DNA from: Eledone cirrhosa
Lineage: Eukaryota
DNA: 64,000 nucleotides
NCBI GenBank assembly: GCA_964016885.1
Contig: OZ024745.1
Coordinates: forward strand, 55,676,001 to 55,740,000
Direction of reading: 5' to 3'
Of this stretch, positions 11,979 through 64,000 are shown in pieces. The notes beneath the pieces are model-generated. The model was not told the DNA's origin. It did no database searches and saw only the letters and a program-made list of their open reading frames with translations. The number at the start of each line of letters is the position of its first letter. Positions within the stretch are counted from its first letter, which is position 1. The position numbers and the translations under genes were made by a program.

Positions 11979-13009
11979 GGCGCAGCTGGTCTTGTTTAAA
12001 CGTTCATAGATCACCTGGGGTTCACTATTATCTGCGTGGACTCTGTGGGAGATGTACCTGTGGATCCAATAGCCAGTGGTTGCCGGATGTGGTCCGTTCG
12101 ATCCTTTAGTTTCAGGGGTTGAACGCTTTCGCGATAGACGAGCCTGCCGGTTCTAAGTCCAAGGTTTCGCCACGCATGATGTATTGGTCTACATGCTATA
12201 TTGTTAAAAAACCAGTGTGTATTTGACTGGGGTGGTATATTATGAACTCCAAGTCCACACGCGACTGGTCAAAAGCGAAGGGCTGTCCTCTCTTTGTTTG
12301 CTGTATGGGTCGGTCTCAGCTTAGATGGTGGTCGTGTTATCCATATTCCGTCAGCCCTGTATATTCAAGACAGATCAGGGTATGTATTTGCGGGTATGGT
12401 CCTGCGTCTACGTTATCCAGAGGGTCTCGCTTGTGGTATTTTCAAGTTCGCATGTCATCTCCCGGTTAAGACTGTGCATGCTTCGGTGAATCTCAAGCAT
12501 GGAATCTTAGGGTATCATATTACACAGGGTGACCAGCAGAAAATATACATTCTATGCTATCGCGCACGCGCTGGCCTGTGGCTACGACCGTGTCCAGTCT
12601 CGGGTAGTAGCAGACAGCAGGTAGACCAGCTATACACACCCCTGCTGAAGGGGCACAACCCTAACTTATCGAGTGATCAGACTTCAAGGGAGTCAACTCG
12701 CCAAGCCCATTATGTCGACCGTGGTGAAATACAAAAAAAATTCCTATTAGTAAAGAACTAATCACTGATAATAAAGAACCAGCTCAGAAGAATGGGGGGG
12801 GGGGCATCTATTTGGGCGGGGGTTTACTAAGGGAGGGGTGGGGTGAGTGGCTATAGGCAGGGAGCGGCCGCCATATTGGGTGTTTTGTTACTGTTTCCCT
12901 AGGCAGTTCTCGAGTTTGTTGACATACATCTCCGACGGCACCCTCTCAGATTAGTCAACGTGGTTCCAGGCCCTCACGATGTCCTGCATCGCAGGCATCA
13001 GCTGCCCCC

Positions 13010-14577
13010 AGGGTGCCCAGCAACAGTCAGGAACTAGAGAAAAACACAATGGAAAGCATCCAGCAAATAGCAAACTCCATCCACCAGAGCATTAGAGTTA
13101 CTATAGACTACCCAAGTAGACATCCCAACCTTCGATTACCTGTACTAGACACAGAGCTCTGGTTAGATACCATTAACAACCAAAAACAAATCCTCCATTC
13201 CCATTATGCCAAACCCATGACTTCCAAACATCTGATCCACCGAAACTCGGCCATTTTGGACCATACCAAAATCAACATACTGATTGCGGATTTGGTACGG
13301 GTGATGAGAAATGTGTCCCGCATGTGCAACCCCGAAGAACTAGCGAGACACATACAACACTTCATCCACCGTATGCAGTTCTCTGGCTACAATCAGAGAG
13401 ATAGAATCAGAGTGTATAGAGGAGCCAGAACCAAATGGGAAAAAAATGGTAAATAATGACATAAATGGGACCTGCCCCTTGTATAGGAGCAAATTTTGGA
13501 ATAGAATAGAAAGAACTAGGAACAAGGCCAATAGAATAAACTCATGGTATGATAGCAATAAATACCAGAGTGTAATGTTCATCAATACAACCCCTAGAGG
13601 CGAACTAGCCTACAAATTTAGAAGGGTCCTAAATAAACATAAACTCAATATTAAGATAGTAGAAAGACCAGGTACCTCCATAAAAACACTTATTAGCAAG
13701 ACATACCCGTTCCAAAGACCCTCATGTATAGATAAGAAATGTATAACCTGTAAAATAAGCCCCCATATTAACTGTAAAACTAGAAATGTAGTGTATAGCA
13801 TAAGATGTACTGAAGGACAATGCTGAAACAAAAATATAGCGTACATAGGTGAGACAGCTCGTAGTATAGGGGAACGGATAAATGAACACTGGCGAGACCT
13901 TCAAGATAATAAAGAATCATCTGTACTCTACCAACATGCTAAGATAGAACACAAGTGTAAATTAGAGAACATAGAAATAAAAATAGAATCCACACACAGA
14001 AAAGATGCAATGTTTAGGCAAATTACAGAGGCAGTAAGCATAAAAGAATTACAACCAAAATTAAATAGAAAATATGAGTGGAACAGCAACATCACAACTT
14101 ACAATTAAGGACAAAATGAAAACACACACACACACATAGAACAAACAACCAACCAACAACATGTAAATAAATAAACAAATAAATAAATGAACACAAACAC
14201 ACACATACACCCGGATGTGGCGCATGCGCAAACTGAGCACACAACACACACACAGAAACAAAATGGCGTAGGACAGAAGAAAGGAAAGGTACAGAAACAA
14301 AGATAGGAATCCCCAGTCACTGAAGAGGTCACAGAGTGTGTGACGAAAGGACTATGACTATATATAAACAACTATCTGGTTGTGGAACCAACCAACCAAC
14401 CAGAAATTTATAAGTTTGTAGATTTGTAAATTTATAAATTTATAAATATATAATAAATTGAAGTGAAAGCAACTGGTGCGTGTGTTTCTTATTGGCAACA
14501 TGACCCTCCCAAAGTATAACAAAATCGGTTTCAACACACGATTTCAGATAAAGAATCTTGCTAAACAAATTCAGAAA

Positions 14578-14952: not shown

Positions 14953-15427
<475 letters not shown>

Positions 15428-16610
15428 TGAAAGACGTAAAATAAGAACATTTTAAAAATTAAAAATTAACTTACTTACTAAAATTTTCCCTCCAGCTAAT
15501 TAGTTTCTGTAATGGGATAAAGATAGTTACGTAATGTAACTGTCGAGAATTCATTACGTCATCAGGGAGTCTATTCTCAGCTAAGTCTCCAGGCAATGCG
15601 CGGACACTAGGGACTCATATAAAAATAATAATAATTCGGTGGATGGAACAGCTAGCGGGGACTAAATTCCAAAGCACTGAAAAAGTTCACTGTCTCTGGT
15701 CAAATGGCAGATTCTAAAGAATCAATCACGTGACACTGAGGCTAATCGGAAGGAGTGGGGTGGTAAAATGATAAAAGCCTACTACCACTACAATAAGTTA
15801 GCAGTGGATTTGGCAGGTTTGCTCAACAAATAAATAATTTGGAGATAAATATAGAGAAATAGTATATTTACCGACATATGCGTACAGATGTACACTAATG
15901 CTAGCAAATACATAAGTTATGTCATAGTACCTAGGTGGTTCAATGCAGGAGGATGCAGAACAATTATATGAAAGACGTAAAATAAGAAAATTTTAAAAAT
16001 TAAAAATTAACTTACTTACTAAAATTTTCACTCCAACTAATTAGTTTCTGTAATGGGATAAAGATAGTAACGCAATGTAACTGTCGAGAATTCATTACGT
16101 CACCAGGGAGTCTATTCTCAGCTAAGTCTCCAGGCAATGCGCGGACACTAGGGACTCATATAAAAATAATAATAATTCGGTGGATGGAACAGCTAGCGGG
16201 GACTGATTTCCAAAGCACTGAAAAAGTTCACTGTCTCTGGTCAAATGGCAGATTCTAAAGAATCAATCACGTGACACTGAGGCTAGTCGGAAGGAGTGGG
16301 GTGGTAAAATGACAAAAGCCTACTACCACTACAATAAGTTAGTAGTGGATTTGGCAGGTTGGCTCAAAAATAAATAATTTGGAGATAAATATAGAGAATT
16401 AGTATATTTACCGACATATGCGTACAGATTTACACTAATGCTAGCAAATACATAAGTTATGCCATAGTACCTAGGTGGTTCAATGCAGGAGGATGCAGAA
16501 CAATTATATGAAAGACGTAAAATAAGAAAATTTAAAAAATTAAAAATTAACTTACTAAAATGTTCACTCCAACTAATTAGTTTCTGTAATGGGATAAAGA
16601 TAGTTACGCA

Positions 16611-16612
<2 letters not shown>
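15428..16612 (-). mobile_element. ~540-bp tandem repeat (2.2 units) carrying HHR motifs; retrozyme-like or PLE pLTR-like
   Basis: Units start at 15428, 15969 and 16509; minus-strand HHR motifs at 15490-15569 and 16031-16110; bounded by (TA)n; no credible coding region. Confidence 0.75.
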
Positions 16613-16662
<50 letters not shown>

Positions 16663-16665
<3 letters not shown>

Positions 16666-16868
16666 AAATGTGATGATCCCGACGGCAGAGCTCAAACCGT
16701 TTCGATTCGACGGCTATATCTGGACTCAAATAGTCTAGAAATAGCCGTCGAAACGGCTTGAGCTCTGCCGTCGGGGTCATATTTATTCCTATTTCACACT
16801 CTACTGCCCTAAGTATTCAGTACCCTTGTGCGTTATGGCCCATCTGGTTCCTTACCACAATTCCTTTG

Positions 16869-16912: not shown

Positions 16913-19900
16913 AAGTTAAAGTTAAATAAAAAGTTAAATGTTTAAAATTTAGCTTCATTTATTACTGCTATATATATTTAAGTGACAGCCATCTTTGGCT
17001 GTGACCTCTTCAGGCAGTTTGACTTAGTATGGTATAGACAAGTACATATGTTGTTGAGGTGTATACTATTGTCAATACTCTGATATGCCCAGTTCCTGGT
17101 TGGGTTGTTATTTCACTGAGGAACTGGAATCATATGAATTCAAACAAACGAATTTCAGTGTCAAAGGGCCTCTTCTCCTCTCATTGGTCAGTTATTAGAA
17201 CATTCCTCATTCTAAGTGTTGTTATTGTTGGAGTTAGCTTAAAAAATTGATAAAATGGTAGAAGGGACAAGATGTTAAAGGAACAAAATAACAAAAAAGG
17301 TGTCAAACTTCCCATTGGTCAGTTCTGAGAGCATTCCTCAGTCAGAAGTCTATAGAATTCTTTCTGGGGTGAGGCTCCCTGTAGTCTTTGTGTTTGCTAT
17401 TGTTAAGTACATTTGACCTCTATCATTATTTTGGTAGTGTTGTTGGTGTTGTGGTCAGCTTATGTCTTGTTGCTGCTGACAATTTAGAAGTATCCAGTGT
17501 GTGTTTTTTCTTCATCCCTCCTACCACCATCTCTCATAGTGGTGGTGGTGGTGGGGGGGATTATTCCATGTATATGAAGAAATATAAGGCAATAAATGAA
17601 GAAAACAGAAAATAAATATTATAATAAAATAATTAATATAATTTGTATAATTTGAAAATAAATAAATAGAGAGTAAAGAATAAAGAATAAATGAAAAATT
17701 GATGAAAAAGTAATGAAAATGAATATGGAGAAGTGAAAAATAATGTAGGATAAAGTGTGTGTGTGCTATAACCAATCTCAAAGTCAGAAATATGTTGGAT
17801 AGATGAGGACAAGATGTTAAAATAAGATATTCAAACTAAATGTGTTTATGTTATAATCAATCTCAACTTAAAAATAAATATAAGGTGATACAGTGAAGAG
17901 GGCAGAAAACAAATAACAAATAATAAATTAATAAAGAGAAATCAAGATTTAAAATTGGAACTTGAAAATCAGAAATCTAGTAAATTAAAAAGTGTTTGTG
18001 TTATATAGATGTTGGCAAAATTATAATGGCTGTGTCCGATTCAATCTCTAGGCTATCATGGTGTCTGCTCAGCCTGGGTTGTTCCCTATGGGTTGAGGGG
18101 AGTTCACAACCTAGGGTGTTGTTACTGCCCATATAGCTTGAGGGAGGTCTGGCCGAGAAGTGTTTCCATGTTAGGTAGAAGTCCCTATAGCTTGAGGGGA
18201 GTTCACATCTTCTTGTGTTGCTACTGTCCATATATCTTGAGAAAGGTCCCGGCTCTAAGATGTCTGGATGTCCCGAAGAAGTCGGTTCTGAGGTTTATCA
18301 GGCCGCTTCCACCTCTTAGTATCTCGAGGGTCTCGTTCAGGCATAGTTTGCATATGCAAGAGCCCCCTTTATCGAGTAGTACTTTCCTGATTATGTACCA
18401 GGCCAGAGAGTATGGGGTCCTGTCCAGCTTAAGCTTCCAGATCAGGTCGGAGAGAGCCGTGCTTTTCATTTTGGCCTCCTCATTGAATGAATGACGATGG
18501 TTGTTCCAGCGGTCTTTAAAGCTCGTTGATGTGGCTCCTATGTAGAGGTGTTCGGAGTTGGGGGTTTTAACCTTACAACCGTATACTAGGTTCTTCTTGA
18601 GGCATTCATTACCAAGGGGGCATGATTCTGGGTTTCTGCAGTTTCTGAGGGTGGTCGGCCTCTGCGTGCCTAGATTAGGGTTCCCGTTATGTGTTACATG
18701 TTGGTCTTCCCCCAGGCTCGGTGGGGGGTCCCCGGGTCTGTTTGGGTTTCTTGGGTGGGCTCTGGGTTCTGCTGAGTGTTTGTATTGCCATCTTCTGGTT
18801 GTGTGTGGTTTTTAAGCCTACTTCTGTTGATGCTAGCTATGTGTTGGGCCAGATTTCTCGTGGTGGAATACGAGAGCTTCACAGTGTGTCTGTTGAAGAT
18901 CCTGTGGTATCTGTGGTCCCTCGGGAAGCATTTGTCAAGTGCTCCAAAGAATGATCGGGCCAAGCTTTTCTTTAGGGCCGCTGAGTAGGGTGGGTTGTAC
19001 CACGTTAATTTTCGGTGTCTCCTCCTATATGTGTGGGTCGGGGGCGTCGTGATTTGTTGGAGATTTGTTGGGTTGCTGGTGGTTTCCGCACTGTTGCTTC
19101 CCCTTTGGGCTCTAAGCTTTTTGTTATCTTCGCGGCCCGAATCTGTGGGGTGGTCGTTGCCCGCCCTGGGAGATCCATCGTGGGGTGGTCGCCCGTTCCC
19201 CCCCCCCTACGTGTCCTGCGGTTGGAGTCGTCTGTTCTGGGGTGGTTAGCGTCACGCCTGAGACTGCTACTCATATTGTGCTTCATCTGGTGGTCAAGCG
19301 CACTAGTCACCACCGCCTGAGTGGTTTGTGTCGGGCACATGGTGCCTATTTGATTCTGCTCTGCCTGTATTGTTAGGATCCACCCCCCTCGGGCAACGCG
19401 GGTGTGGGTGTCTGTTGGGCTATCCCCATCCCGGTGTTTCGGACTATATGTTATATTTTGGCCATGTGCCGCCTTCTTTAGAGCTGCGTTGTAATATTCC
19501 GCGTGGTTATTGAATATTTCCTTACTTGCGGACAGGCTGGAGATCCTGTCCGAGACACTCTTCACCCCTGCCTTGGTTATGGATCTAGGGTGGTTTCATT
19601 TGGCGTTAAAATATACGAGTTTCTCGTTGTGCTTGTGGTAGGGGTAGTAAGCTGGACAGGACCCCATACTCTCTGGCCTGGTACATAATCAGGAAAGTAC
19701 TACTCGATAAAGGGGGCTCTTGCATATGCAAACTATGCCTGAACGAGACCCTCGAGATACTAAGAGGTGGAAGCGGCCTGATAAACCTCAGAACCGACTT
19801 CTTCGGAACATGCATACACCTTAGAGCCGGGACCTTTCTCAAGATATATGGACAGTAGCAACACAGGAAGATGTGAACTCCTCTCAAGCTATAGGGACTT

Positions 19901-21826: not shown

Positions 21827-22167
21827 GGAGGCACATATATATCCATATATAATGGATGCCATTGGCCTTGCAATCGAAAGGTTGTGAGTTCAATTCACAG
21901 ACCGGGTGATGTGTTGTTTCCTTGAGCAAGGCACTTTATTTCACATTGCTCCAGTTTACTCAGCTGTAGAAATGAGATTATATGGACTGGAGTCCCTATC
22001 ATTCCACTGCATAGTGGTCGTGGAGGTGCCACGCAAAAAAGCACCCAGCACACACTGTAAATGAGGTTGGTGTTAGGAAGTGCATCCAGCTGTAGAATCA
22101 AGCCAGAATCAATTCCCGTTCCACCCTTGCAAGCAGGGAAAAGTGGACGTAAAATGAAATGATGATA
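21827..22167 (+). mobile_element. tRNA-derived SINE with RTE-related tail
   Basis: B-box GTTCAATTC, core TCCTTGAGCAAGGCACTT, tail GTTAGGAAG.GCATCCAGC...GGACGTAAAATGA..TGATGAT. Confidence 0.75.
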
Positions 22168-23076: not shown

Positions 23077-23661
<585 letters not shown>

Positions 23662-37128: not shown

Positions 37129-37757
37129 AAAATTAGAACTGGTGCTCTGAAATAGCGATGTATATATGAATGTATATATAGTATATTTGGCAATACACTG
37201 TATGCTTAATTAAAAGCATTTTGAAAACCATACGCTATTGTTTTAAAGTAGTGACTATGTCACTTACTTCTTTTTTCAACAAACAAAGGGAGCTAAGCTG
37301 ACAGATCTCTGTTTCACACTGTTGGTATTCATCAGAGCTTAGTACTCGCCTTTGTCTGTTGAAAATTATAAATGTTGGATGCTTATAGAATTCCAGTAAT
37401 AATCAGGAACTGATTATACAGAGCGGTTGCCGGTCCAGCAAAAACTGAAATTTAGGATTGGTGCTCTGAAATAGCGATGTATATATGAATGTCACTACTT
37501 TAAAACAATAGCGTATGGTCTTCAAGATGCTTTTAATTAAGCATACAGTGTATTGCCAAATATACTATATATACATTCATATATACATCGCTATTTCAGA
37601 GCACCAATTCTAATTTTCACTTTTTGGTGGACCGGCAACCGGTCTGTATGATCAGTTCCTGATTATTACTGGAATTCTATAAGAATCCAACATTTATAAT
37701 TTTCAAAATGCTTTTAATTAAGCAAACAGTGTATTGCCAAATATACTATATATACAC
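37129..37757 (-). mobile_element. ~320-bp unit element (1.1 tandem units plus an inverted copy) with a canonical HHR; retrozyme-like
   Basis: GTGCTCTGAAATAGCGATGTATATATGAAT at 37142 and 37462 (period 320); 37491-37757 is reverse complement of the unit; short TA-rich flanks. Confidence 0.75.
37294..37341 (-). ncRNA. Canonical type I hammerhead ribozyme
   Basis: Minus strand: taagct-CTGATGA-atac(caaca)gtgt-GAAA-caga(ga)tct-GTC-agctta; all core nucleotides and three stems present. Confidence 0.88.
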
Positions 37758-40488: not shown

Positions 40489-40853
40489 AAAAAGGGATGA
40501 AATCGAAAATGCAACTGAAGTCTTATTTTTTTAAAAATATATATATTTATTTGATTCCTTTACCGGTTTCGCAGTTCTTCTGCTTTTCAAAAGGTGAGTT
40601 GAGATGGAGGGTCTGTGGTTTTTCTCACATCTGTGATTTTTCTCACAGATGTGAGAAAAACCACAGACCCTCCATCTCAACTCACCTTTTGAAAAGCAGA
40701 AGAACTGCGAAACCGGTAAAGGAATCAAATAAATATATATATTTTTAAAAAAATAAGACTTCAGTTGCATTTTCGATTTCATCCCTTTTTCTTTATACTT
40801 CCACTCGTGTAGGACACCTCGGTTATTTTTCATTTTGTAAAAAAAACCTCACT

Positions 40854-41019: not shown

Positions 41020-41428
41020 AATATATAAGATCAAAAGATGGTTAAAGGAGTTCCATGTATTTTATTATGCGCATTTCAAAAACAAACATCATCATGCAAT
41101 AATATTTGTGTTTTCATCAGATAAAACAGGAGAACATGATATGAAGGCTAAAAAACACTTGTGGATATTGCAGTTTTAAATCAACATGCACTATCCACAA
41201 GTGTTTTTTAGCCTTCATATCATGTTCTCCTGTTTTATCTGATGAAAACACAAATATTATTGCATGATGATGTTTGTTTTTGAAATGCGCATAATAAAAT
41301 ACATGGAACTCCTTTAACCATCTTTTGATCTTATATATTATGTATACTCCAGTCCTACACCTGTAGAGTGCTTCTTATCCGATATCTGCATTGCGTTATT
41401 GTACTACAATAAAACTCACCTCCTACAT
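41020..41428. mobile_element. Fold-back insertion family Y (~155-bp arms plus ~90-nt extension) with HHR-like motif
   Basis: Palindrome centred at ~41180; ttat-CTGATGA-aaac...gtttt-t-GAAA-tgcgc-ataa at 41235-41294, lacking U16.1. Confidence 0.8.
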
Positions 41429-42694: not shown

Positions 42695-42832
42695 GTCGCA
42701 ACTCCAGGTATAAGGGGCAACACAAAATAAAGTGTCTTGCTCAAGGACATATCGCATCGCCCGGTACAGGATTCGAACTGACAACCTCACGATTGCGAAT
42801 CCAGTTATCTAACCATTCAGCCACACGCTTTC
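42695..42832 (-). mobile_element. tRNA-derived SINE in left arm (mirror copy 49442-49580, plus strand)
   Basis: A-box TGGCTGAATGG, B-box GTTCGAATCC, core TCCTTGAGCAAGACACTT. Confidence 0.8.
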
Positions 42833-43431: not shown

Positions 43432-44505
43432 TACATACAGGTACACATACATATATGTACGCATCAGTTTTGCGGACGCTTATTATAGCGCCCGCTTTGT
43501 TCGTTTGTAAACAAACTGAACAGCCTGAATTTATGCCGCACGGTGTTAAGGCAACCACGTCACCTTTTTGTGTACATAAACTGAAGTATTACAAAAATAT
43601 ATAATAAAAATATATGATAATAATTACTAAGGATGTATATAACATTAAGAACCATATTACAAATATAGTCCAAAGCAAAAACTAGAGCTAAACAAAGGTG
43701 GTTATATAGAGCAGGAATTTTATATAATACAATATAACATACAATAATATACCTTTACCAACATTAAAATCAAAAATTACAATAAAAATCAAAAGATACA
43801 ATATGTATATATGTGCGCACACGTACACACACATACACATACAACAATACGCACATCCATCTTCCCCTGCACAAATTAAACCTTATTAAGAATTTGAATA
43901 TAAAAATAAGCATGGTAGGAATTAAAATAATAATAATAATACTAATACATCTACCCAATATACATGAGGTAATAATATGATATAATTATAAGTAACACAT
44001 ATAATAATAAATAATACAATTATATACTATATAATACAATATAATAGAATAGATAATCTCCGGTTAATTTACACAAACAATATAGATGTCACAATAATAA
44101 TATAATAATAATAACATTTACAACATACAATATACTAACATTTATCAATGTACTCAAGTTAACAAATCGATTCATATTGGGTTACAGAGTAGGTGAGGAA
44201 AAATAAATTGTACAATACCTCAAAAAACTTACAGAAGTAGAAACATCTTACATGATATATAAAGTTTAACATATCATAATGTTACATATAATTAACGGTA
44301 AGTAATAAGGATCAATATTACAATAACAAATACAATATAATATAATATATTATATAAAATAAATTAATACAATATAATATATAATTACTTATAATTACAA
44401 GGTTGGTAGACAGACATGTATATGGATGAGTGAGTGAGTGCCAGACAGTGAAAATAATGCACAGTAGTATTACAATATAGAATAAAATAAATAAATAGAT
44501 AGAAT

Positions 44506-47135
44506 ACTTACGAAAAACTATTGATAGCTGGTGTTAACTCCTTTGTAAAAAGGATTAGATGGCGTGCTTTCCACTATGATAATAATAAGGATAGCAAGGA
44601 CCCCAGGAATAGAACTATTTTTAATAACTATGGCTTCAAAACTTATAAGAGCCCACCACACAATATTCTGTTAGATAGTTTTGAAAGTGACTTACTCTCT
44701 CTTGTCAAAAATATTAGGTATAGGCCAAATAATAGACATAGAAATTATAATAATTTTGATAAGTTCCAGTCTAGACTTAAAAATATTGTTAAGGGTTTCG
44801 GTGAGAATAAGTCCATTCTTGTCCCGGCGGATAAGACTAAAAATCTATACTCCATGGATTATAGTGCTTACCGCGACTTTATTTATAAGGAGCTGCATAG
44901 AAACTATAAAAAAAACTACACTTGAGAATTTGAACCACATCAATAGTGATGGCCTTAGAATTGTCTCTGACCTCGGCCTCGATAAGTATACCCAGCCATA
45001 TTACCCTCGAGAACCGAGATTCACTCTTAAGGATCACAAGGTTGATTTTATTAGTAACCCTTCAGTTAGACTCATCTGTCCTTCTAAGTCTGATATAGCC
45101 ATTATCAGTAAAAAAAATCCTTGACCTTATTATACCAGATGTTAGGGATAAGATTAATTTTAACCTATGGGGGAACACTAAGGAAGTTATAGATTGGTTC
45201 TCCGGGATTAATAGACTTGAATCTAATAAGTTTATCCAATTCGATATTGATGCCTACTACATATCAATTTCACCGGTCCTGCTCAATAAAGCTTTAATGT
45301 TGGCCATGAGAGTGTCCAGCCTTACACGATCACAGGTAGATATTATACTAGCAGCCCGTAAAACTATTATTAAATTTGAGGACACATTTTGGACCCGTAA
45401 AAACACGCCCAACAATTTCGACGTTACAATGGGTTCGAGTGATTCGGCCCAGGTTACTGATCTTGTTGGGTTGTTCCTCCTTAATGAACTATATGCTACC
45501 TTCCCGCACCTTATAGGCGGACTATATCGTGATAATGCATTGTTTGTAATTAACTCTAGCACCAACAATGTAGAACATAATAAGAAGAAGCTTTATAAGT
45601 TTTTTAAAAGCTATAACCTTTCGATCACGATAGATAGAAATGATAGAGCGGTTAACTTTTTAGATGTGACTTTGGACTTGGACACTAATAGTTTTAAACC
45701 CTTCCATAAGCCTAATGAAATACTTTCTTATGTTAGTCCCAATTCTAACCACCCCAAGTCTATGATAAGCTCTATAATTAAGGGTGTATCTAATAGGATT
45801 TCTACACTCTCTAAGGACATAGGAACATTTAATGAACATGCGGAGTACTATAATAATGCCCTAGCAAATTCAGGTTACTCTAGTAAAATACATTATAATA
45901 ATAGTAACCTTAGAAAGTCTCCGTCTACCTTTAATAATAATAGTATAATATCACATAACATGGCCATGAATGTGAGTAGCAAACATAGTAACCGTAGAAA
46001 TTATATAGGTGTTTCTGAACCCACCCATAAGTTAACCCACCGAACCCGTAATAGCGAATATAATACATCTAGGAAACATGTTGAACCCCCTGAGCGCTCA
46101 CACATTGGTGATAATTTAGCTGGATCTTATTCTGATAATGTTGCTCCTACTGATCCTATCATTGGCCCTGATCCTTATGATGGGATTCCGGACAGCAGCA
46201 GATGTACTGGAGGTAGAAACTGTAATAGACTTAATGAAATTTTGGCTGATTCTATGAATGCGGCTTTAACTAATCCTTGTAGTAACCCTAGTCTCGATGG
46301 TGGGATACTCGATAATGGTAGAGTCGGTAAGAATAAAAATAGAAGGCGATTAAACACTTATTTTAACCCGCCATATAATCAGGAAGTATCAACTAATATC
46401 CCTAGGTCTTTCTTCTCTATCTTAGAGAACAATTTCCCCCCTTCTCATAAATACCATAGTATTTTTAATAAAAATGTTATTAAACTTTCATTCTCTACCA
46501 CCCCTAATATTAGTTCTCATTTAGCTAGCACTAACAATAGGAAAATTAGGGATGGATTCTCCTCTCTACATACTACTAGTCTGAACAGATCTGGCAATGC
46601 ATTACCACCAGAACAGTCCTTATCTAATAGCAATCTTATGTGTAATGCATCACCACTTGAGTCAACCAATAACACCCGGAAGTGCAATTGTAGACTGAGT
46701 GCTAATTGCCCTTTAAACGGTAACTACCTTTCTAAGAACATTGTCTATGCTTGTGAAGTTATAACTAATTCCTCTAATAGAACTTATATAGGCTCTACAT
46801 CTAACACTTTTAAGACTAGGTTTAACTCTCATATCTCTAATTTCAAGCATGTTAAGTTTAAGAATTCTACTTCTTTAGCACATTATGTCTGGGATCTTAA
46901 GATAGCTAATATACCATATAGCCTTAACTGGCGTTTAGTAGCACGCTCTAACCACCTTTCTACACATACTAAGTTTTGTAATCTCTGTATCCTCGAGACA
47001 CACTCTATAATCTTCTCTAGCGCATCTTTACTTAATAGAAAGTCTGAGATATTCTCTTCTTGCCCCCATGCTATTTCTAATGCATACTTTTATTATAAAC
47101 CTAAACGTTCTAGTAGTACAAATTGTACCCATTAG
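44506..47135 (+). pseudogene. Penelope-like RT plus GIY-YIG ORF (family B, CxCx5C-linker type, possibly Hydra clade), 5'-truncated and frameshifted
   Basis: RIRWRA, VPADKTKNLY, TLKDHK..F..NPSVRLICP, FDIDAYY, FDVTMGS, GLYRDN, NFLDVTLDL, CNCRLSANCPL, NIVY..YIGST, CNLC; frameshifts at A-runs ~44910 and ~45112. Confidence 0.92.
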
Positions 47136-49423: not shown

Positions 49424-49687
49424 TTAAATATATATATATATGAAAACGTGTGGCTGAATGGTTAGATAACTGGATTCGCAATCGTGAAGTTGTCAGTTCG
49501 AATCCTGTACCGGGCGATGCGATATGTCCTTGAGCAAGACACTTTATTTTGTGTTGCCCCTTATACCTGGAGTTGCGACCGATAAAGAGTATTAGAAATT
49601 TTGGAAAGACCAATGGAAACATTGTTTCCTCGGTCCGATTTAATGAAAGTCGATCGACTACATATATATATTCAGCAATGGTAATCA

Positions 49688-53151: not shown

Positions 53152-53827
53152 GTGAGGTTTTTTTTACAAAATGAAAAATAACCGAGGTGTCCTACACGAG
53201 TGGAAGTATAAAGAAAAAGGGATGAAATCGAAAATGCAACTGAAGTCTTATTTTTTTTTTAAATATATATATTTATTTGGTTCCTTTACCGGTTTCGCAG
53301 TTCTTCTGCTTTTCAAAAGGTGAGTTGAGATGGAGGGTCTGTGGTTTTTCTCACATCTGGTTGGTCTCTAAATGTTACTTGTTTTATATGGAAAAAGTGG
53401 CTCGAAAACCAGGTTTTTCGAGAAGTAATTTGATTGGTTTGTCAATAATTATAATAAATTTCGCGCCAGTTCGCGTTACAATAGTTCTTCAAATAAGAGA
53501 GGGGGGGGGTTGTCACAGGTTGTTTTTTCATATATGAGTGTTTGAATTTCTTTTTACTTGAAAAAATGAGGCTCACGAAGGCTTTTTTTTGGTTGGTTAT
53601 AAATGAAATTTGGCTGTCACGTTTTCATTACATTTTTGCGCCCTTATTTGGAAAACTATTCTGTAGTCTTTATAGTGAATGTTATGACAATGGAGAGAGT
53701 GGTCAAGGGAAAAGGGATTGGGAGAAATGTTCTGGTTCAGTGAATATGGCCAGCTGTCAGAGTTCAGGTGTCAGAGTTCAGATTTTCTATTGAGACTGAA
53801 GATATGTGTTTATTTGTGTGCTTGTGT

Positions 53828-53858
<31 letters not shown>

Positions 53859-56599
53859 ATGTGTGTATTGGAAGATGATTCTATTAGTAGAGATGGGGGA
53901 GGGAGTTGTGTGTTATGTGTGTGTGTGCGAGTATGTTAGATAGAGAGAATATATATTTTGTGTGTGTGTATATATATATGTGTGTAGGAAAGTGGTTCTA
54001 TTAGTAGAAATGGGGAGGGTGTTGTAGGTGTGGGGGTTGTTATGTGTGTGTATGGGTGTTATGTGTGTGGGAGTATGGTTAGCATGTTAAGATGAAGAGA
54101 ATATATATATATATATATATATTGTGTGTGTGTGTATGTGTGTGTGTAGGAAAATGATTCCTTTAGTAGGAATATTTTTGAATGAACATATTTTCCTGAC
54201 TTTTTCGTGTTTGCTATTGTATTGCCAGTGCAAACGTATGTTTAAGGTTTATTTAGTTCGGGTTTTTATTTTCTAAAGTAGAAGGTGTTATGTGTGTGTG
54301 TGTATGTCATATTGTGGTGTTGACATAATGTATATTAAACCTTATTTAATGTTGGTCTATATTTTTGAATAAACATATTTTCCTTATTTATTCGCATTTG
54401 TTCTGTTGTATTGTTAGCGCAAAGGTAAAATGGGAAGACTTGGAATTTGGGTGTCTTATTACTTGCGCAAATGTCTAGATATGCACTTAGTGGTATCTGT
54501 CTCGTGGTTGGATCTCGTAATTGTTGGCGATGAACTGTCATTCTGTTTCTGAGTGTGAGTTTAGTTTGTCCTATATAATCTTCATTGCATCCTTTACATT
54601 TAATGGCATAAATTAGATTTTTTGATGAGCAAGTGAAGTGATTTTTTACAGTAAAATTTTGTCCTGATTTAAATGTATACGTGTTGCCTTCAATGAGGTG
54701 AGTGCAGGTTCCACAATTAGAGCGACCACATTTTTTGATACTTGGTTGTGGGTTTGTGGTAGGTAATTTGGCATTGGTGAGTAATGTTTTCAGTGATTTT
54801 GGTTGTCTTTTGCTTTTGATTATTTTGTGTGTTTCAAGGGCTTTTTTCATTCTTGGGTTTTGTTTTAGTAGTGGGATGTTATTGTGAATAGTGTTGTAAG
54901 CTTCCGCATTTCTTGGGTTGTGTGTTGAGATATATGATAGAATATTGGACGTACCTTAAATTTGTTTCTGTTTCCGTAATTCATCAATGCCTATTGCTTT
55001 AGCCCTTTCTATTCCATTATTTATTAGTAATAGTGGGTACTCTCTCTCAAGTAGAATTTCCTTTAATTCTTGAAGTCTTTTATTTCGCGTTTCATAATTG
55101 GAGACAATTGTGCAAATTCTTCTTGCTAGGTTAAAAGGAATGTTCGTCTTCGTGTGCTTTGGATGGTTGGAGGTGAATAGCAGATATTGTTTGGAATCTG
55201 TTGGTTTGTAGTGTATGTCAGTTTCGATATTTGTGTCTTTTTTTGTGATTAAGATGTCCAGAAATGGGAGTTGATCTTGGCTGTATTCCATTGTGAATTG
55301 GATGTGGTTATTGATGCCGTTTATTAAGTTTTTGAAATCCTTCAGTTGGTCGAGTGTGTGGGACCAAAGAATGAGGCAATCATCCAAGTAGCGTTTCCAA
55401 TTCTCTGATAAATATTTGTGGAAGTTCAATCCGTATTTTGATTTGGACTGTTCATATATCTGGACTTCTAAGTATGCCATGACTAAGTTGGCATAAGTTG
55501 GAGCGGCTTTTGTGCCCATCGCAGTCCCCGATATTTGCTTGTAAGTATTGCCATCGAAATCAAAAAAGTTGTTCTGTAGGATGAATTTTAATCCCTCGGT
55601 GATGAAGCTTTTTTCTATTCTGTCAGGTATCTCATTGGGATATTTCTCTAGCCAGAATCCTATTGCTTCTAGTCCGTATTGGTGTGGGATCGTTGTGTAG
55701 AGATTCACTACATCGAAAGACACAATAATAGTGTCGTTGTTGACATGTTTGGGGAGGTGGTTTAAGAGGTCCAGATCGTCTCTTACAAGGCTTGGTATGT
55801 GTTTCAGTATTGGTTTCAGTAGTATGTCTATAAAGTTGCTAAATCTGTGTGTTTCACATTGTGGGCCCGCTACAATTGGTCTTAATTTAAGGTCTGTGGG
55901 GTATTGTGTGTTCACGCAGGCTGAGGTGGATTGTTTACAGGCATCGTTGATTATTTTACATTTGTGGATCTTCGGAAGTCCGTAAAGGTTGCTGGTTTTG
56001 TATTCAAAATTTGTTAAATAATCGCGTTCCTTTTTAGTTAGGTCTTCCTGGTATCGATAAATCAGTGTGTTTAATTTGGTCATTATTTTTGATTGCTGGT
56101 AGTTTTTTACTCTTTCATAGTAATTAGCATTTTGTAAGAGAGAGAACATAGAATTTTTATATTTTTCAGCCTCCATAATGACAACAGTACTTCCCTTGTC
56201 CGCTTCCTTAATTACAATGTCCGGATTGTTTTTTAGTTCATGGATAATCTCCCATTCCCTTCGACTTGTGTTGGGTTTGGGTTTAGGTTGCGGTAGTTCA
56301 TGGTATGGGAAGGTAGCTATGTGGTCACAAAATTTGTCCAGAACTCTGTTTCTACCTTTTGTTGGGTTGTAGCTGCTTTTATTCCGTACAATTGATTCGT
56401 CGTTATTCTCCTTGTCAAAAAATTCCTCTGTGAGACGTAATTTTCTACAGAAGTGTGAGATATCGTCATTTATCTCGTTGGGGTTAGGATATTGTGGTGT
56501 TGGTGTGAATTTCAGACCTTTGGAGAGAATTTTTACTTGTTGGGCTGAGAGGTTTGTATTTGAAATGTTTATTATTTTCGGTTTTTCAAAATCGGTTTT
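53147..56599 (-). mobile_element. Penelope-like element family X (Neptune-like), near-complete ORF plus ~1.2-kb 3' UTR with HHR
   Basis: ORF below; 3' UTR with (CA)n subrepeats and HHR at 53283-53320; both ends in (TA)n. Confidence 0.92.
54335..56599 (-). pseudogene. PLE reverse transcriptase plus GIY-YIG endonuclease, single in-frame stop
   Basis: [68 protein letters not shown] linker, NLIY..CKGC..YIGQT; TAA at 54956-54958 is in frame with the downstream ORF. Confidence 0.93.
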
Positions 56600-59478
<2,879 letters not shown>

Positions 59479-61826
59479 TCCACATTCCACCGTCCAATAT
59501 ACAAACCCAATGTCATCTCTCCTGTCCATCCGTTTGACGCTATGGATTTCCACAATGCAAACTGGGAAGCGATCAGTCATGATCTTGCACATGTCGACTG
59601 GTCCTTCACGCACACTCTTACACCCACTAACATCAAAAAGTCCTGGCAGACATTTGTGGACACTGTTACAAACATATGTGCTAAACACATCCCATTAAGA
59701 ACTGTAAACAAATCTAAGAGCAGAATCCCTAGAAATAGAAAAACGCTCATCAGAAAAATTAAGAGAACGAACAAAAATATCAACAAGCTGAAATACTGTC
59801 AGCAGCAACACATCAACTTGTCTGCCATTTCATCACTAGAGATTAAAAAACATAACCTCCAAAACAACATAATGTCCCTCATCAACAATCAGAGAAGAGC
59901 TGAAGAGGCCTGGGCCATTGAGAAGATCAAACTCAATCCCAAAGTGTTATTTTCATTTGCAAAAAAACACAAAATCACTGGCTCTACTGTTGGCCCTCTA
60001 ATTGATGAAAATGGCACTCTTCAAGACAATGCTAAAACCATGGGTGAGATACTGCAGAAACAATACTGCTCTGTTTTCAGCAATCCTGATATGGCCGATC
60101 TGGGCTGTATCGGCGATGTTACTCCCCATTACACCTTATCGGACATAACGTTTGGCGCCCTGATGTCTTGGCGGCAATAAAGGAAATCAAGCATAATTCA
60201 GCAGTAGGTCCCGATAGGTTCCCTGCTTGTGTCTTGAAGGTGTGTCAACACCAACTTGCATCTCCTCTTGCCAATCTGTGGCGGAACTCACTGGATGCTG
60301 GATATGTGCCAGAAAACCTTCTATCCCAGTCTGTTGTCCCAGTTTTCAAAAAGGGAAACAAATCCCTTGCCGTGAATTACCGTCCAATCTCACTCACCTC
60401 TCATATCATTAAGGTATTTGAGAGAGTGGTGAGATCGCGAATGACCCACTTCCTTGAGAGTAACAATATGCTGAACTCCAACCAGCATGGATTCCGTAAT
60501 GGAAGGGATTGCCTGACGCAGCTACTGCATCACTTTGATGACATTTTGAGAGCCTTGGGAGAGGGTTCCAACACTGATGTTATCTACCTTGATTTCAGCA
60601 AGGCCTTTGACAGGGTTGATCATAACATTCTACTGAGAAAGCTGTCCAATATTGGTGTCACTGGAAAGCTGCTGCAGTGGATCAAGAGCTTCCTGTCAAA
60701 CAGAACCCAACATGTTGTAGTTGAGGGAGTCAAATCCATCCCAGCCAAAGTCAGTAGTGGGGTCCCACAGGGCACTGTGTTGGGCCCACTTCTCTTCATC
60801 ATCTATATTAATGACATCACTGACATCATCAAACACAGCAACATTAAAATTTTCGCTGATGATTCCAAGCTCCAAAAGGTCATCAATGGCGTGGATGACC
60901 GGATAAGCCTTCAGTCAGACCTACTGGCTGTTACCCAATGGGCGGAAAAGAACAACATGTTACTGAACGAAGACAAATTCGAACTGATCCACTTTGGAAA
61001 AGAGGATGCTCTGAAACTCCCGTACTCCCTTCCCTCCGGGGAAACTCTCGTGGCATCTAACAACATCAGAGACTTGGGAGTAACCGTGGACAGCAACATA
61101 AGCCGGACCACGCATATAAGCAGCAAAGTTGACATGGCCTGCAGAATGTGTTCCTGGATCCTCAGAACCTTCCAGTCGAGAGATTCCCGCACCATTATCC
61201 TTCTCTTCTCTACTTTTGCCCGACCACACCTCGAATACTGTTGTCCACTGTGGTCTCCCCACACGAAACAAAGTATCATGAAACTTGAAGCTCCTCAAAG
61301 GGCAATCACGAAAAAGATAGATGGCATGTCAGACCTTGACTACTGGGGTCGATTAGAAAACCTGAAACTTTACTCACTCCAACGTCGCCGTGAGCGTTAT
61401 ATTATCTGCATGATGTGGAAAATGTTCCATCATCACTGCCCAAATGATGTTGGCATCGCCTTCAAGATACACCCAAGGCTTGGGCCCCGTGCTATCCGTC
61501 CCATTCAAAAATCTAAATCGCAACTCATAACAACAATACGGCACAATTATTTCACCTCAATCGGCCCTGCTCTCTTCAACATCACACCAGGACACGTCAA
61601 AACAGAAACTGACCACACAAAATTCAAGAAGTCTTTGGACAAATTCTCCAAGTAATCCCGGACAAACCACCCACACCCGGATATGTCTCCGCAAACAGTA
61701 ATTCTCTTCTCGAATGGGCCATGGTGCCCAAATCCTGAATTGAAAGACTTCGCCAGGTGGTGCTATTAAGTTAGACATGGCCTGGGCCAATACTGGCCAA
61801 AACATTTCAAAGTTATTCAAAGTTAT
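59479..61826 (+). mobile_element. 5'-truncated CR1/L2-group LINE, ORF2 RT, inserted in (TA)n
   Basis: SAVGPD, NYRPISLTS, QHGFR, YLDFSKAFDRVDH, SGVPQGTVLGP, FADD, RDLGV, RPHLEY, SLQRRRERY; frameshifts at ~60165 and ~61645; tail (TTCAAAGTTA)x2. Confidence 0.92.
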
Positions 61827-62325: not shown

Positions 62326-63568
62326 ATACTTTGGGAGGGTCATGTTGCCAATAAGAAACGTACACGCACCAGTTGCTTTCACTTCAATTTATTATATATT
62401 TATAAATTTATAAATTTATAAATTTATGGTTGGTTGGTTGATTCCACAACCAGATAGTTGTTTATATATAGTCATAGTTCTTTCGTCACACACTCTGTGC
62501 CCTCTTCAGTGACTGGGGATTCCTTTCTTTGTTTCTGTGCCTCTCCTTTGTTCTGTCCAACGCCATTTTGTTTCTGTGTGTATGTTGTGTGCTCAGTCTG
62601 CGCATGCGCCACATCCGCGTGTCTGTGTGTGTTTATGTTCATTTATTTATTTGTTTATTTACATGTTACTGGTTGGTTGTTTGTTCTATGTGTGTGTGTG
62701 TTTTCATTTTGTCCTTAATTGTAAGTTCTGATGTTGCTGTTCCACTCATATTTTCTATTTAATTTTGGTTGTAATTCTTTTATGTTTATTGCCTCTGTAA
62801 TTTGTCTAAACATTGCGTCTTTTCTGTGTGTAGATTCTATTTTTATTTATATGTTTTCTAATTTACCCTTGTGTTCTATTTTAGCATGTTGGTAGAGTAC
62901 AGATGATTCTTTATTATCTTGAAGGTCTCATCTGTACTCTACCAACATGCTAAAATAGAACACAAGGGTAAATTAGAGAACATAGAAATAAAAATAGAAT
63001 CTACACACAGAAAAGACGCAATGTTTAGACAAATTACAGAGGCAATAAACATAAAAGAATTACAACCAAAATTAAATAGAAAATATGACTGGAACAGCAA
63101 CATCACAACTTACAATTAAGGACAAAATGAAAACACACACACACATAGAACAAACAACCAACCAGTAACATGTAAATAAACAAATAAATAAATGAACATA
63201 AACACACGCAGGCACCCGGATGTGGCGCATGCGCAGACTGAGCACACAACACACACACAGAAACAAAATGGCGTAGGACAGAACAAAGGAGAGGCACAGA
63301 AACAAAGAAAGGAATCCCCAGTCACTGAAGAGGTCACATAGTGTGTGACGAAAGAACTATGACTATATATAAACAACTATCTGGTTGTGGAACCAACCAA
63401 CCAACCAGAAATTTATAAATTTATGAATTTATAAATATATAATAAATTGAAGTGAAAGCAACTGGTGCGTGTGTTTCTTATTTGCAACATGACCCTCCCA
63501 AAGTATAACAATATCGGTTTCAACACACGATTTCAGATAAAGAATCTTGCTAAACAAATTTAGAAACG

Positions 63569-63570: not shown

Positions 63571-63654
<84 letters not shown>

Positions 63655-63655
<1 letters not shown>

Positions 63656-64000
63656 AGAGACGTAAAATAAGAAAATTATAAAATTAACTTACTTACTAAA
63701 AAATCACTTCCAACTAATTAGTTTCTGGAATGGAGTAAATATATTTTCCGAAGAAACATATGGAAAATCATTCCGTCATCAGGAAAGTCTTTTTCCGTAT
63801 AGGTCTCCAGGCATAGCGAGGACACTGGAAACTTATTAAAAAAATAATTCAGTGGAATGGAAATAGCGATGCGTGGACTGGATTCCAAGCCATTGAGAAA
63901 ATCACTGCCTCTACGTCTGTGGCAAATTCAAAACTAGATATAAATTCCTTATAATTATCTCCAATTCATTTGTCGAGCAATATTTGGCCATGACTGCTAC
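63655..64000 (-). mobile_element. Diverged relative of the 540-bp HHR repeat
   Basis: AGACGTAAAATAAGAAAA..ACTTACTTACTAAAA..CCAACTAATTAGTTTCTG shared with 15428; minus-strand HHR motif at 63707-63787. Confidence 0.8.

Follow-up and report, generated by a model that had tools for sequence, protein, structure and literature searches.

A 541-bp tandem repeat of Eledone cirrhosa with a type I hammerhead variant and a predicted leader/loop II pseudoknot

The window analyzed here, a 64,000-nt stretch of Eledone cirrhosa DNA (GCA_964016885.1, contig OZ024745.1, positions 55,676,001 to 55,740,000), is AT-rich and crowded with (TA)n tracts and retroelement fragments. A short head-to-tail array lies on its minus strand (Table 1). 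The first-pass annotation had described a 540-bp tandem repeat at this place, and this was confirmed: comparison of 15431-16072 with 15972-16608 gave 96.4% identity over 642 columns (18 substitutions and 6 gap columns), and the spacing of the hammerhead cores at 15565 and 16106 set the period at 541 bp. The array turned out not to be large, as had been stated, as only 2.2 units are present. The GC content of the unit is 36%. Inspection of the ORFs in 15428-16612 revealed no meaningful ORF, no RT/GIY-YIG ORF and no coding remnant, and at the protein level the array matched none of the other elements of the window (best non-self tblastx E 0.05). An ORF starting in stem II, comparable to that of the anole element, was considered but not accepted, since despite a shared ATG the frames part ways and run into stops within 30 codons. 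In the circular fold of the monomer the opposite strand gave a z of -3.7, and 2 of the 30 control stretches were equally low, with one further at -4.15, so that the fold gives modest support for a self-paired monomer. Just past the (TA)n tract at the 5' truncation there is an imperfect, GC-rich 108-bp palindrome (16673-16780, 80%), in which no hammerhead core was seen and of which the window contains no second copy.

Table 1. Coordinates of the array, its relative and their parts (numbered from the first letter of the window; -, minus strand)
Feature	Position	Strand	Description
(TA)n tract, 3' end of element, presumed target	14955..15428	.	
Whole insertion	15428..16612	-	about 2.2 units of 541 bp, head-to-tail; no ORF; 5' truncation within stem II of the first copy
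Hammerhead copy 1	15489..15578	-	CUGAUGA and GAAA intact, U16.1C, stem I down to 4 bp; cut site after 15494
Predicted 541-nt monomer between two cut sites	15494..16034	-	circular fold z -4.3 (40 shuffles), 59% paired
Branched stem II, copy 1 (predicted)	15509..15557	-	6 bp, 7x7 internal loop, distal hairpin
Predicted pseudoknot, loop II strand	15545..15550 (copy 1); 16086-16091 (copy 2)	-	
Predicted pseudoknot, 5' leader strand	15573..15578 (copy 1); 16114-16119 (copy 2)	-	
Hammerhead copy 2	16030..16119	-	A6G; GUU intact, stem I 5 bp; cut site after 16035
Stem III palindrome, 10 nt	16036..16045	-	copy 1 equivalent 15495-15504, last base changed
Third hammerhead, 3' half only	16566..16612	-	stem II 3' strand, GAAA, palindrome, GUU
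(TA)n tract at 5' truncation	16611..16662	.	
Related family member	63654..63933	-	75% identical; same 3' end, at (CA)n(TA)n; reaches or passes the window edge
Intact hammerhead of the relative	63706..63796	-	core 63776-63782; cut site after 63712
Predicted pseudoknot strands of the relative	63791-63796 and 63762-63767	-	

A minus-strand hammerhead motif had been reported for each full unit, and both were found, with the cores CUGAUGA at 15565-15559 and CUGGUGA at 16106-16100. The changes read earlier in these units were also there, U16.1 to C in copy 1, which gives GCU at the cut site, and A6 to G in copy 2, where the GUU triplet is intact as described. The elements CUGANGA, GAAA and NUH, in type I order, are intact in the related sequence at 63654-63933 (the relative), and each full array copy has one lesion. 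Stems I, II and III comprise 5-6, 6 and 3 bp (4 bp for stem I of copy 1), with 64 of 66 cells paired over 22 counted pairs, a count that leaves out the outer pairs of stem I, for which the relative shows an additional pair and a shifted register, and that takes in just 4 pairs from the distal hairpin. Two consecutive units with complete cores, by which Li et al. recognize 'active' retrozymes, do not occur in the array because of A6G and U16.1C; judged by its sequence, the locus is probably a decaying and inactive copy. Since the two lesions are located in different halves of the motif, one lesion-free site could be assembled between copies, by combining the core of copy 15565 with the cut strand of an upstream copy.

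The C and A noted earlier at the base of stem II, before GAAA, are unpaired in all three full motifs, including that of the relative, with a G-C pair one step outward. A U-U mismatch at this position has been described for active natural hammerheads, and therefore the unpaired C and A do not exclude function. The C following A9 corresponds to an extra nucleotide that Penelope hammerheads typically have there, likewise followed by a G-C pair (PMC4209133). The unusual part is the A preceding GAAA, present in all copies. At 16-25 nt beyond the cut sites (after 15494, 16035 and 63712) there are two overlapping consensus splice-donor hexamers, conserved between array and relative; Penelope elements have been described to retain an intron near the pLTR hammerhead.

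CUGAUGA and GAAA are separated by 50-51 nt, which are predicted to fold on themselves into a 6-bp stem, an internal loop and a distal hairpin. Pair probabilities in the 6-bp stem were 0.98-1.0 for copy 15565, 0.96-0.99 for the relative and 0.66-0.67 for copy 16106, and the z values of the stem II fold against 500 shuffles were -4.45, -3.09 and -1.66 in the same order. In the relative the branched topology, with a UUCG loop, is the second-best fold (-9.8 vs -10.2 kcal/mol). The earlier description of a loop II of about 40 nt thus holds for the length of the insert (36-37 nt) but not for a plain unstructured loop, the insert being predicted to be folded. Stem III as a 3-bp hairpin has an energy of +1.5 kcal/mol, as compared to -9.0 kcal/mol for the palindromic duplex between copies and -8.4 kcal/mol for the duplex of the two natural stem III copies, which agrees with the previous suggestion that the palindrome favours dimers. 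Dimeric cleavage based on a palindrome is established for newt and Penelope hammerheads, and by the same model the ribozyme of the array and the relative would probably cleave as a dimer. Against this, only 1 of 9 predicted Xenopus retrozyme dimers was reported to cleave in vitro.

The relative (63672-63933) is 75.3% identical to the array over 271 columns. A compensatory T-A to G-C change had been proposed for its stem II and was verified as U-A to G-C, and the same 10 nt of the stem III palindrome are kept, as annotated. Conservation between array and relative peaks at the core and stems; the odds of keeping the core and all stems under neutral drift would be about 3e-4 at 19.5%, the measured background divergence, and 2e-3 at 15%. 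A strict descriptor found one match in the window, namely the relative, and one in 150 Markov-resampled 64-kb windows, corresponding to a null rate of 0.007 per 64 kb. Rfam searches gave no hammerhead in 15430-16620 at E up to 10 (two matches, both to an unrelated family and below threshold), and none among the matches listed for the whole window (150 of 318). On this comparison of sequences the type I hammerhead variant is real and structurally selected, and the retention of core and stems supports the first-pass proposal of such a variant within a repeat of the retrozyme or pLTR kind. The similarity ceases about 150 nt upstream of the core, and RNAalifold applied to the 150 nt upstream found 1 double-sided change in 34 pairs and no clear second conserved module.

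A covariance model built from the three motifs revealed no third family in the window, as E values below 0.2 were obtained only for the three training sequences and the partial copy (13 matches); the 64 kb contain two loci, of two subfamilies. Motif scans elsewhere gave no match in viral contigs and, with two patterns, none in metagenome contigs. The array and the relative are each placed tail-to-tail, across (TA)n, with a member of one other pLTR-like family (13894-14574 and 62329-63563, 93% alike). A joint segmental duplication is unlikely, given that the neighboring elements are 93% alike and array and relative 75%. The shared neighbor may be explained by chance, by clustering at shared targets, or may be a hint of a partner element, with ORF fragments at 12246-13826.

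Six bases of the 5' leader, 2 nt upstream of stem I, can pair with bases 2-7 of loop II, as GAGAAU/AUUCUC in the array and GGAAAA/UUUUCC in the relative, all six pairs being Watson-Crick in both. In each family no other 6-bp Watson-Crick helix joins loop II to the 30 nt that lie upstream of stem I, and the register is the same. When the relative was shuffled with the array helix given, a helix in the same register appeared in 6 of 20,000 cases. A 6-bp helix anywhere was found in 16-17% of the shuffles of a single family, and the evidence therefore rests on the register common to both. In an unguided MAFFT alignment, double-sided changes were present in three of the six pseudoknot pairs and in 5 of the same restricted set of 22 pairs overall (3 in the pseudoknot, 1 in stem II, 1 in the distal hairpin), compared to 0-1 with the partners slid. 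The probability under neutral drift of keeping all six pairs intact with at least three double changes is 2e-5 to 4e-4, a figure that applies to a comparison of three rows, effectively two families, with the structure read from the same sequences and the pseudoknot noticed post hoc. Two concerted one-base slips could yield the identical pattern of pair changes. A similar test on five other hammerhead-like motifs of the window gave helices of just 2-4 bp.

An extended stem I was considered as an alternative partner of the leader strand and rejected, the extension being weaker (-3.1 and -2.3 kcal/mol) than the pseudoknot duplex (-7.2 and -6.1 kcal/mol). The pseudoknots known from other hammerheads join loop I to bases directly after stem II and were reported for about 40% of the surveyed hammerheads, in all three types; shortening such a pseudoknot lowered activity 20- to over 100-fold (PMC3088659). 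By analogy, the geometry of the leader/loop II helix matches these known contacts. It is a predicted loop I-II pseudoknot, and the evidence for it is stronger than the stem II covariation taken by itself. Neither this helix nor the fixed 3' end at a microsatellite had been noted in the first-pass annotation.

The 3' end is the same in both families: the array stops 66 nt and the relative 58 nt beyond the cut site, where (TA)n or (CA)n(TA)n follows immediately. The distance from the core to the downstream microsatellite is 137 nt (array) and 128 nt (relative). Among ten other hammerhead-like cores tested, seven also have a microsatellite 78-261 nt downstream, six of these being (TA)n. As the end of the element does not coincide with the cut site, the template was uncut there, that is, a multimer or a circle. 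No target-site duplication could be read inside (TA)n. The Penelope protein of the anole nicks AT-rich DNA and starts reverse transcription inside uncut RNA, a mode that fits, by analogy, the end geometry of array and relative (PMC11167929). A point against a role of the ribozyme in mobility is that insertion by this element in vitro did not require cleavage (PMC11167929). Nearly all insertions of Hydra elements are into (TA)n, and the linker of Neptune is tied to microsatellite targeting (PMC8557442).

Among 12 ORFs searched with Pfam, GIY-YIG was identified at 54338-54955, and RT was matched strongly at 60090-61652 and weakly at 54959-56401. Motifs like those of Neptune/Nematis (DKG, GxKF, Cx4CxxC) occur at 54338-56401, and Hydra-like motifs (RWR, DKT, CxCx5C) at 44503-47132, in the ORF fragment 44503-47135 (+). 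Both this fragment and a second Hydra-like Penelope fragment, 18221-19595 (-), went undetected by Pfam, and both have long inverted flanks (43438-44505/47866-48939 and 16916-18431/19648-21144). An autonomous partner of the array was not found in the 64-kb window.

What was observed directly is the repeat itself, its core and stems, pairing that is possible in each of the two families, a constant 3' end next to a microsatellite, and truncation at the 5' side. To account for them we incline to a model in which the non-coding 541-bp repeat with its type I hammerhead is a likely non-autonomous passenger of Penelope elements, of the non-LTR retrozyme type, with a predicted 6-bp pseudoknot clamp and probable dimer cleavage. 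In a read-through transcript of at least two units, the stem III palindromes would pair, and the 5' leader would pair with the start of loop II, clamping stems I and II and substituting for the canonical loop contact. Cleavage after GUU would free 541-nt monomers, which may circularize. A Penelope RT/GIY-YIG protein acting in trans would nick (TA)n; reverse transcription, starting on an uncut multimer or circle at roughly 60 nt beyond the cut site, would pass more than two units and halt inside the stem II hairpin. The inserted copy would afterwards decay neutrally.

Alternatively, the unit could be the 3' pseudo-LTR of an autonomous Penelope-like element, and the locus a 5'-truncated partial tandem or a DNA-level duplication with no independent retrozyme cycle. 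This is the less likely explanation, although it has several points in its favor. In other elements of the window, too, a hammerhead lies about as far from a 3' end bounded by (TA)n. With its similarity to the array ending about 150 nt upstream of the core and its sequence cut by the window edge, the relative could have a coding body farther on. Moreover, retrozymes and pLTRs are described as sister sequences in Xenopus, and the two classes as grading into each other (bioRxiv 10.64898/2026.07.22.740005). Against this explanation, the array has two perfect head-to-tail junctions and lacks a coding remnant, and its three overlapping copies differ by 3, 5 and 6 substitutions over about 105 nt, a near-equal divergence that is compatible with a single insertion followed by decay.

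The leader/loop II helix may serve as a tertiary clamp, as part of an off-state hairpin, or as both in turn. In the second case the covarying helix would belong to a hairpin that forms first in transcription and masks the core until a second copy or the element protein refolds the RNA. As a point against our model, nested folds that break the hammerhead reached -20.1, -23.9 and -23.2 kcal/mol for copy 15565, copy 16106 and the relative. The bare hammerhead, predicted with neither pseudoknot nor dimer, had -12.7, -11.4 and -11.9 kcal/mol, a difference of 7-12 kcal/mol; the omitted pseudoknot corresponds to about -4 kcal/mol as an isolated duplex. The lowest fold of the relative is a long hairpin that incorporates and extends the covarying helix and leaves stems I and II open, and the hammerhead of the anole Penelope cleaves only with its protein (PMC11167929), both in line with an off state. 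In the array copies, however, the nested hairpin with the covarying helix is not the lowest fold (-16.6 vs -20.1 and -10.8 vs -23.9 kcal/mol). The extension of the hairpin beyond this helix also differs in register between array and relative, and only the 6-bp core helix, with its spacing to stems I and II preserved, is common to both families. An off-state role of the helix is considered rather improbable. The two private changes of copy 2 (16103 and 16069) both seem to lengthen one alternative 17-bp hairpin, which accounts for -23.9 as compared to -20.1 kcal/mol, and appear to resemble the outcome of a quasi-palindrome correction event.

It is still more doubtful that the fold was retained for binding of the reverse transcriptase or another non-catalytic role, with negligible self-cleavage. 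The mismatch or extra A before GAAA in all copies, the uncut template implied by insertions ending about 60 nt past the cut site, and the poor cleavage in vitro reported for Penelope hammerheads (PMC4209133) could be understood in this way, but none of the 13 catalytic positions is lost from the relative, and each is also kept by at least one array copy, at about 20-25% divergence; pseudoknots of this kind are described for fast hammerheads. That the motif arose by chance in a common AT-rich satellite, as the lack of an Rfam hammerhead might suggest, can practically be dismissed in view of the null rate, the five double-sided changes and the conservation peaking on core and stems.

Apart from these two families, the window contains no fewer than eight with hammerhead-like motifs, several as inverted pairs, and is a dense sample of Penelope-type ribozyme diversity. 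Motifs with a U3-A8 core covariation (UUGANAA) and full stems were seen at 40590 (-), 40689 (+), 53316 (-) and 10776 (-), that at 53316 being situated in the 3' end of the RT/GIY-YIG element 54338-56401; a UUGANAA core variant has been described for Cercyon elements of Schistosoma. A second family with a long insert (36 nt in stem II) is represented at 41120 (-), 41239 (+), 52780 (-) and 52919 (+), where stem I measures 8 bp and the palindromic stem III 8 nt in foldback pairs between (TA)n tracts; no pseudoknot was seen in these four motifs. Minimal or canonical type I-like motifs are found at 14320 (+), 35877 (+), 62509 (-), 63325 (+), 17013 (-), 21045 (+), 23003 (+), 37335 (-) and 51372 (+), mostly at the ends of elements or within inverted repeats, and the one at 37335 is a clean GUC motif with a z of -4.9. 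Dispersed short repeats (21860-21976, 23336-23476, 42714-42821 and 49453-49560), which overlap a tRNA match at 23336-23408, are probably a tRNA-derived SINE.

By its sequence, the array has the anatomical features of the non-LTR retrozyme or detached pLTR class. Animal non-LTR retrozymes (PMC7229834; bioRxiv 10.64898/2026.07.22.740005), as far as described there, are likewise low-GC (under 45-50%) non-coding tandem units with one type I hammerhead each and co-occurrence with Penelope-like elements; they also have a self-paired monomer, for which the array gives modest support. The array unit of 541 nt falls within the 51-972 bp given for retrozyme units in animals (bioRxiv 10.64898/2026.07.22.740005), and differs from the circles of about 170-400 nt of invertebrate retrozymes (PMC7229834). 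It further differs from non-LTR retrozymes by its branched stem II, which sets the core halves 50-51 nt apart, by a predicted Watson-Crick pseudoknot in place of the canonical loop contact and, relative to the 'active' retrozymes of Li et al., by having no pair of copies with two intact cores. With the hammerheads of Penelope pLTRs (PMC4209133, PMC6155905, PMC6765202) the array shares type I order, a stem I of 5-6 bp, a longer stem II, the extra nucleotide after A9 followed by G-C, and a palindromic stem III implying dimers, and with the elements themselves a hammerhead near a fixed 3' end, the partial tandem, 5' truncation and a microsatellite target. In contrast to them, it has a stem III of 3 bp within a 10-nt palindrome, the extra A before GAAA, a covarying tertiary helix (predicted) and no attached ORF.

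The 5-6 bp helix between distal stem I and the bases that directly follow the first strand of stem II, present in the type II consensus and in the intronic ribozyme of human C10orf118 (PMC3088659), resembles the one predicted here. The pseudoknotted hammerheads of that study are microbial or single-copy and conserved, whereas the array is a mobile animal tandem repeat; the passages of PMC3088659 covered contain no pseudoknotted hammerhead in a repeat of this kind, the repetitive type I set of the study lying outside them. The type III hammerheads of toad and termite HDV-like RNAs and of dipteran genomes (PMC7936874) also have a 5-bp stem I, a 6-bp stem II and an internal loop that is capped by a hairpin and whose 5' side forms a pseudoknot, comparable to the one predicted here. 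There the internal loop and extra hairpin belong to helix I, in the array to helix II of a type I motif, and on sequence grounds this mirror-image type III motif seems to be the nearest architecture encountered. In the full-text literature covered, no type I hammerhead with a pseudoknot and a branched stem II was found in an animal tandem repeat, although one may exist outside this scope, in Lunse et al. 2017, in the Perreault dataset, in the supplements of the bioRxiv study or in repeat libraries. The supplement on Naiad elements (PMC8557442) gave no text match to two motifs of the unit, in a format where line breaks can hide matches. A link to the 3' end of Naiad ('HHR_half_core') found no support in Naiad_Ovul (1 of 8 cases, by eye), where GAAA precedes CUGAUGA, unlike in the array.

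The class of element is already known and the array copy is probably inactive; what is chiefly new is the predicted pseudoknot. With 50 nt between the core halves the motif was missed by Rfam and lies outside the spacer of 7-17 nt of a published core descriptor, and surveys therefore probably undercount such ribozymes. A more speculative, and rather unlikely, extension of our model is a Penelope-dependent family of retrozymes whose ribozyme has two locks: a type I hammerhead, fast and clamped by the pseudoknot, and a stem III that would work only between adjacent copies, so that multimers would be cut efficiently while monomer circles would stay closed. As motifs with a long branched stem II escape Rfam and short-spacer descriptors, a hidden class of them would then perhaps be common in invertebrate repeats scored as hammerhead-less. 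Lesions in different halves of the motif make the array a natural dimer test. Penelope hammerheads have been held to be minimal, free of tertiary contacts (PMC6155905) and slow, and may or may not cut during transposition; a covarying pseudoknot in one family leads to the prediction that fast cleavage is under selection.
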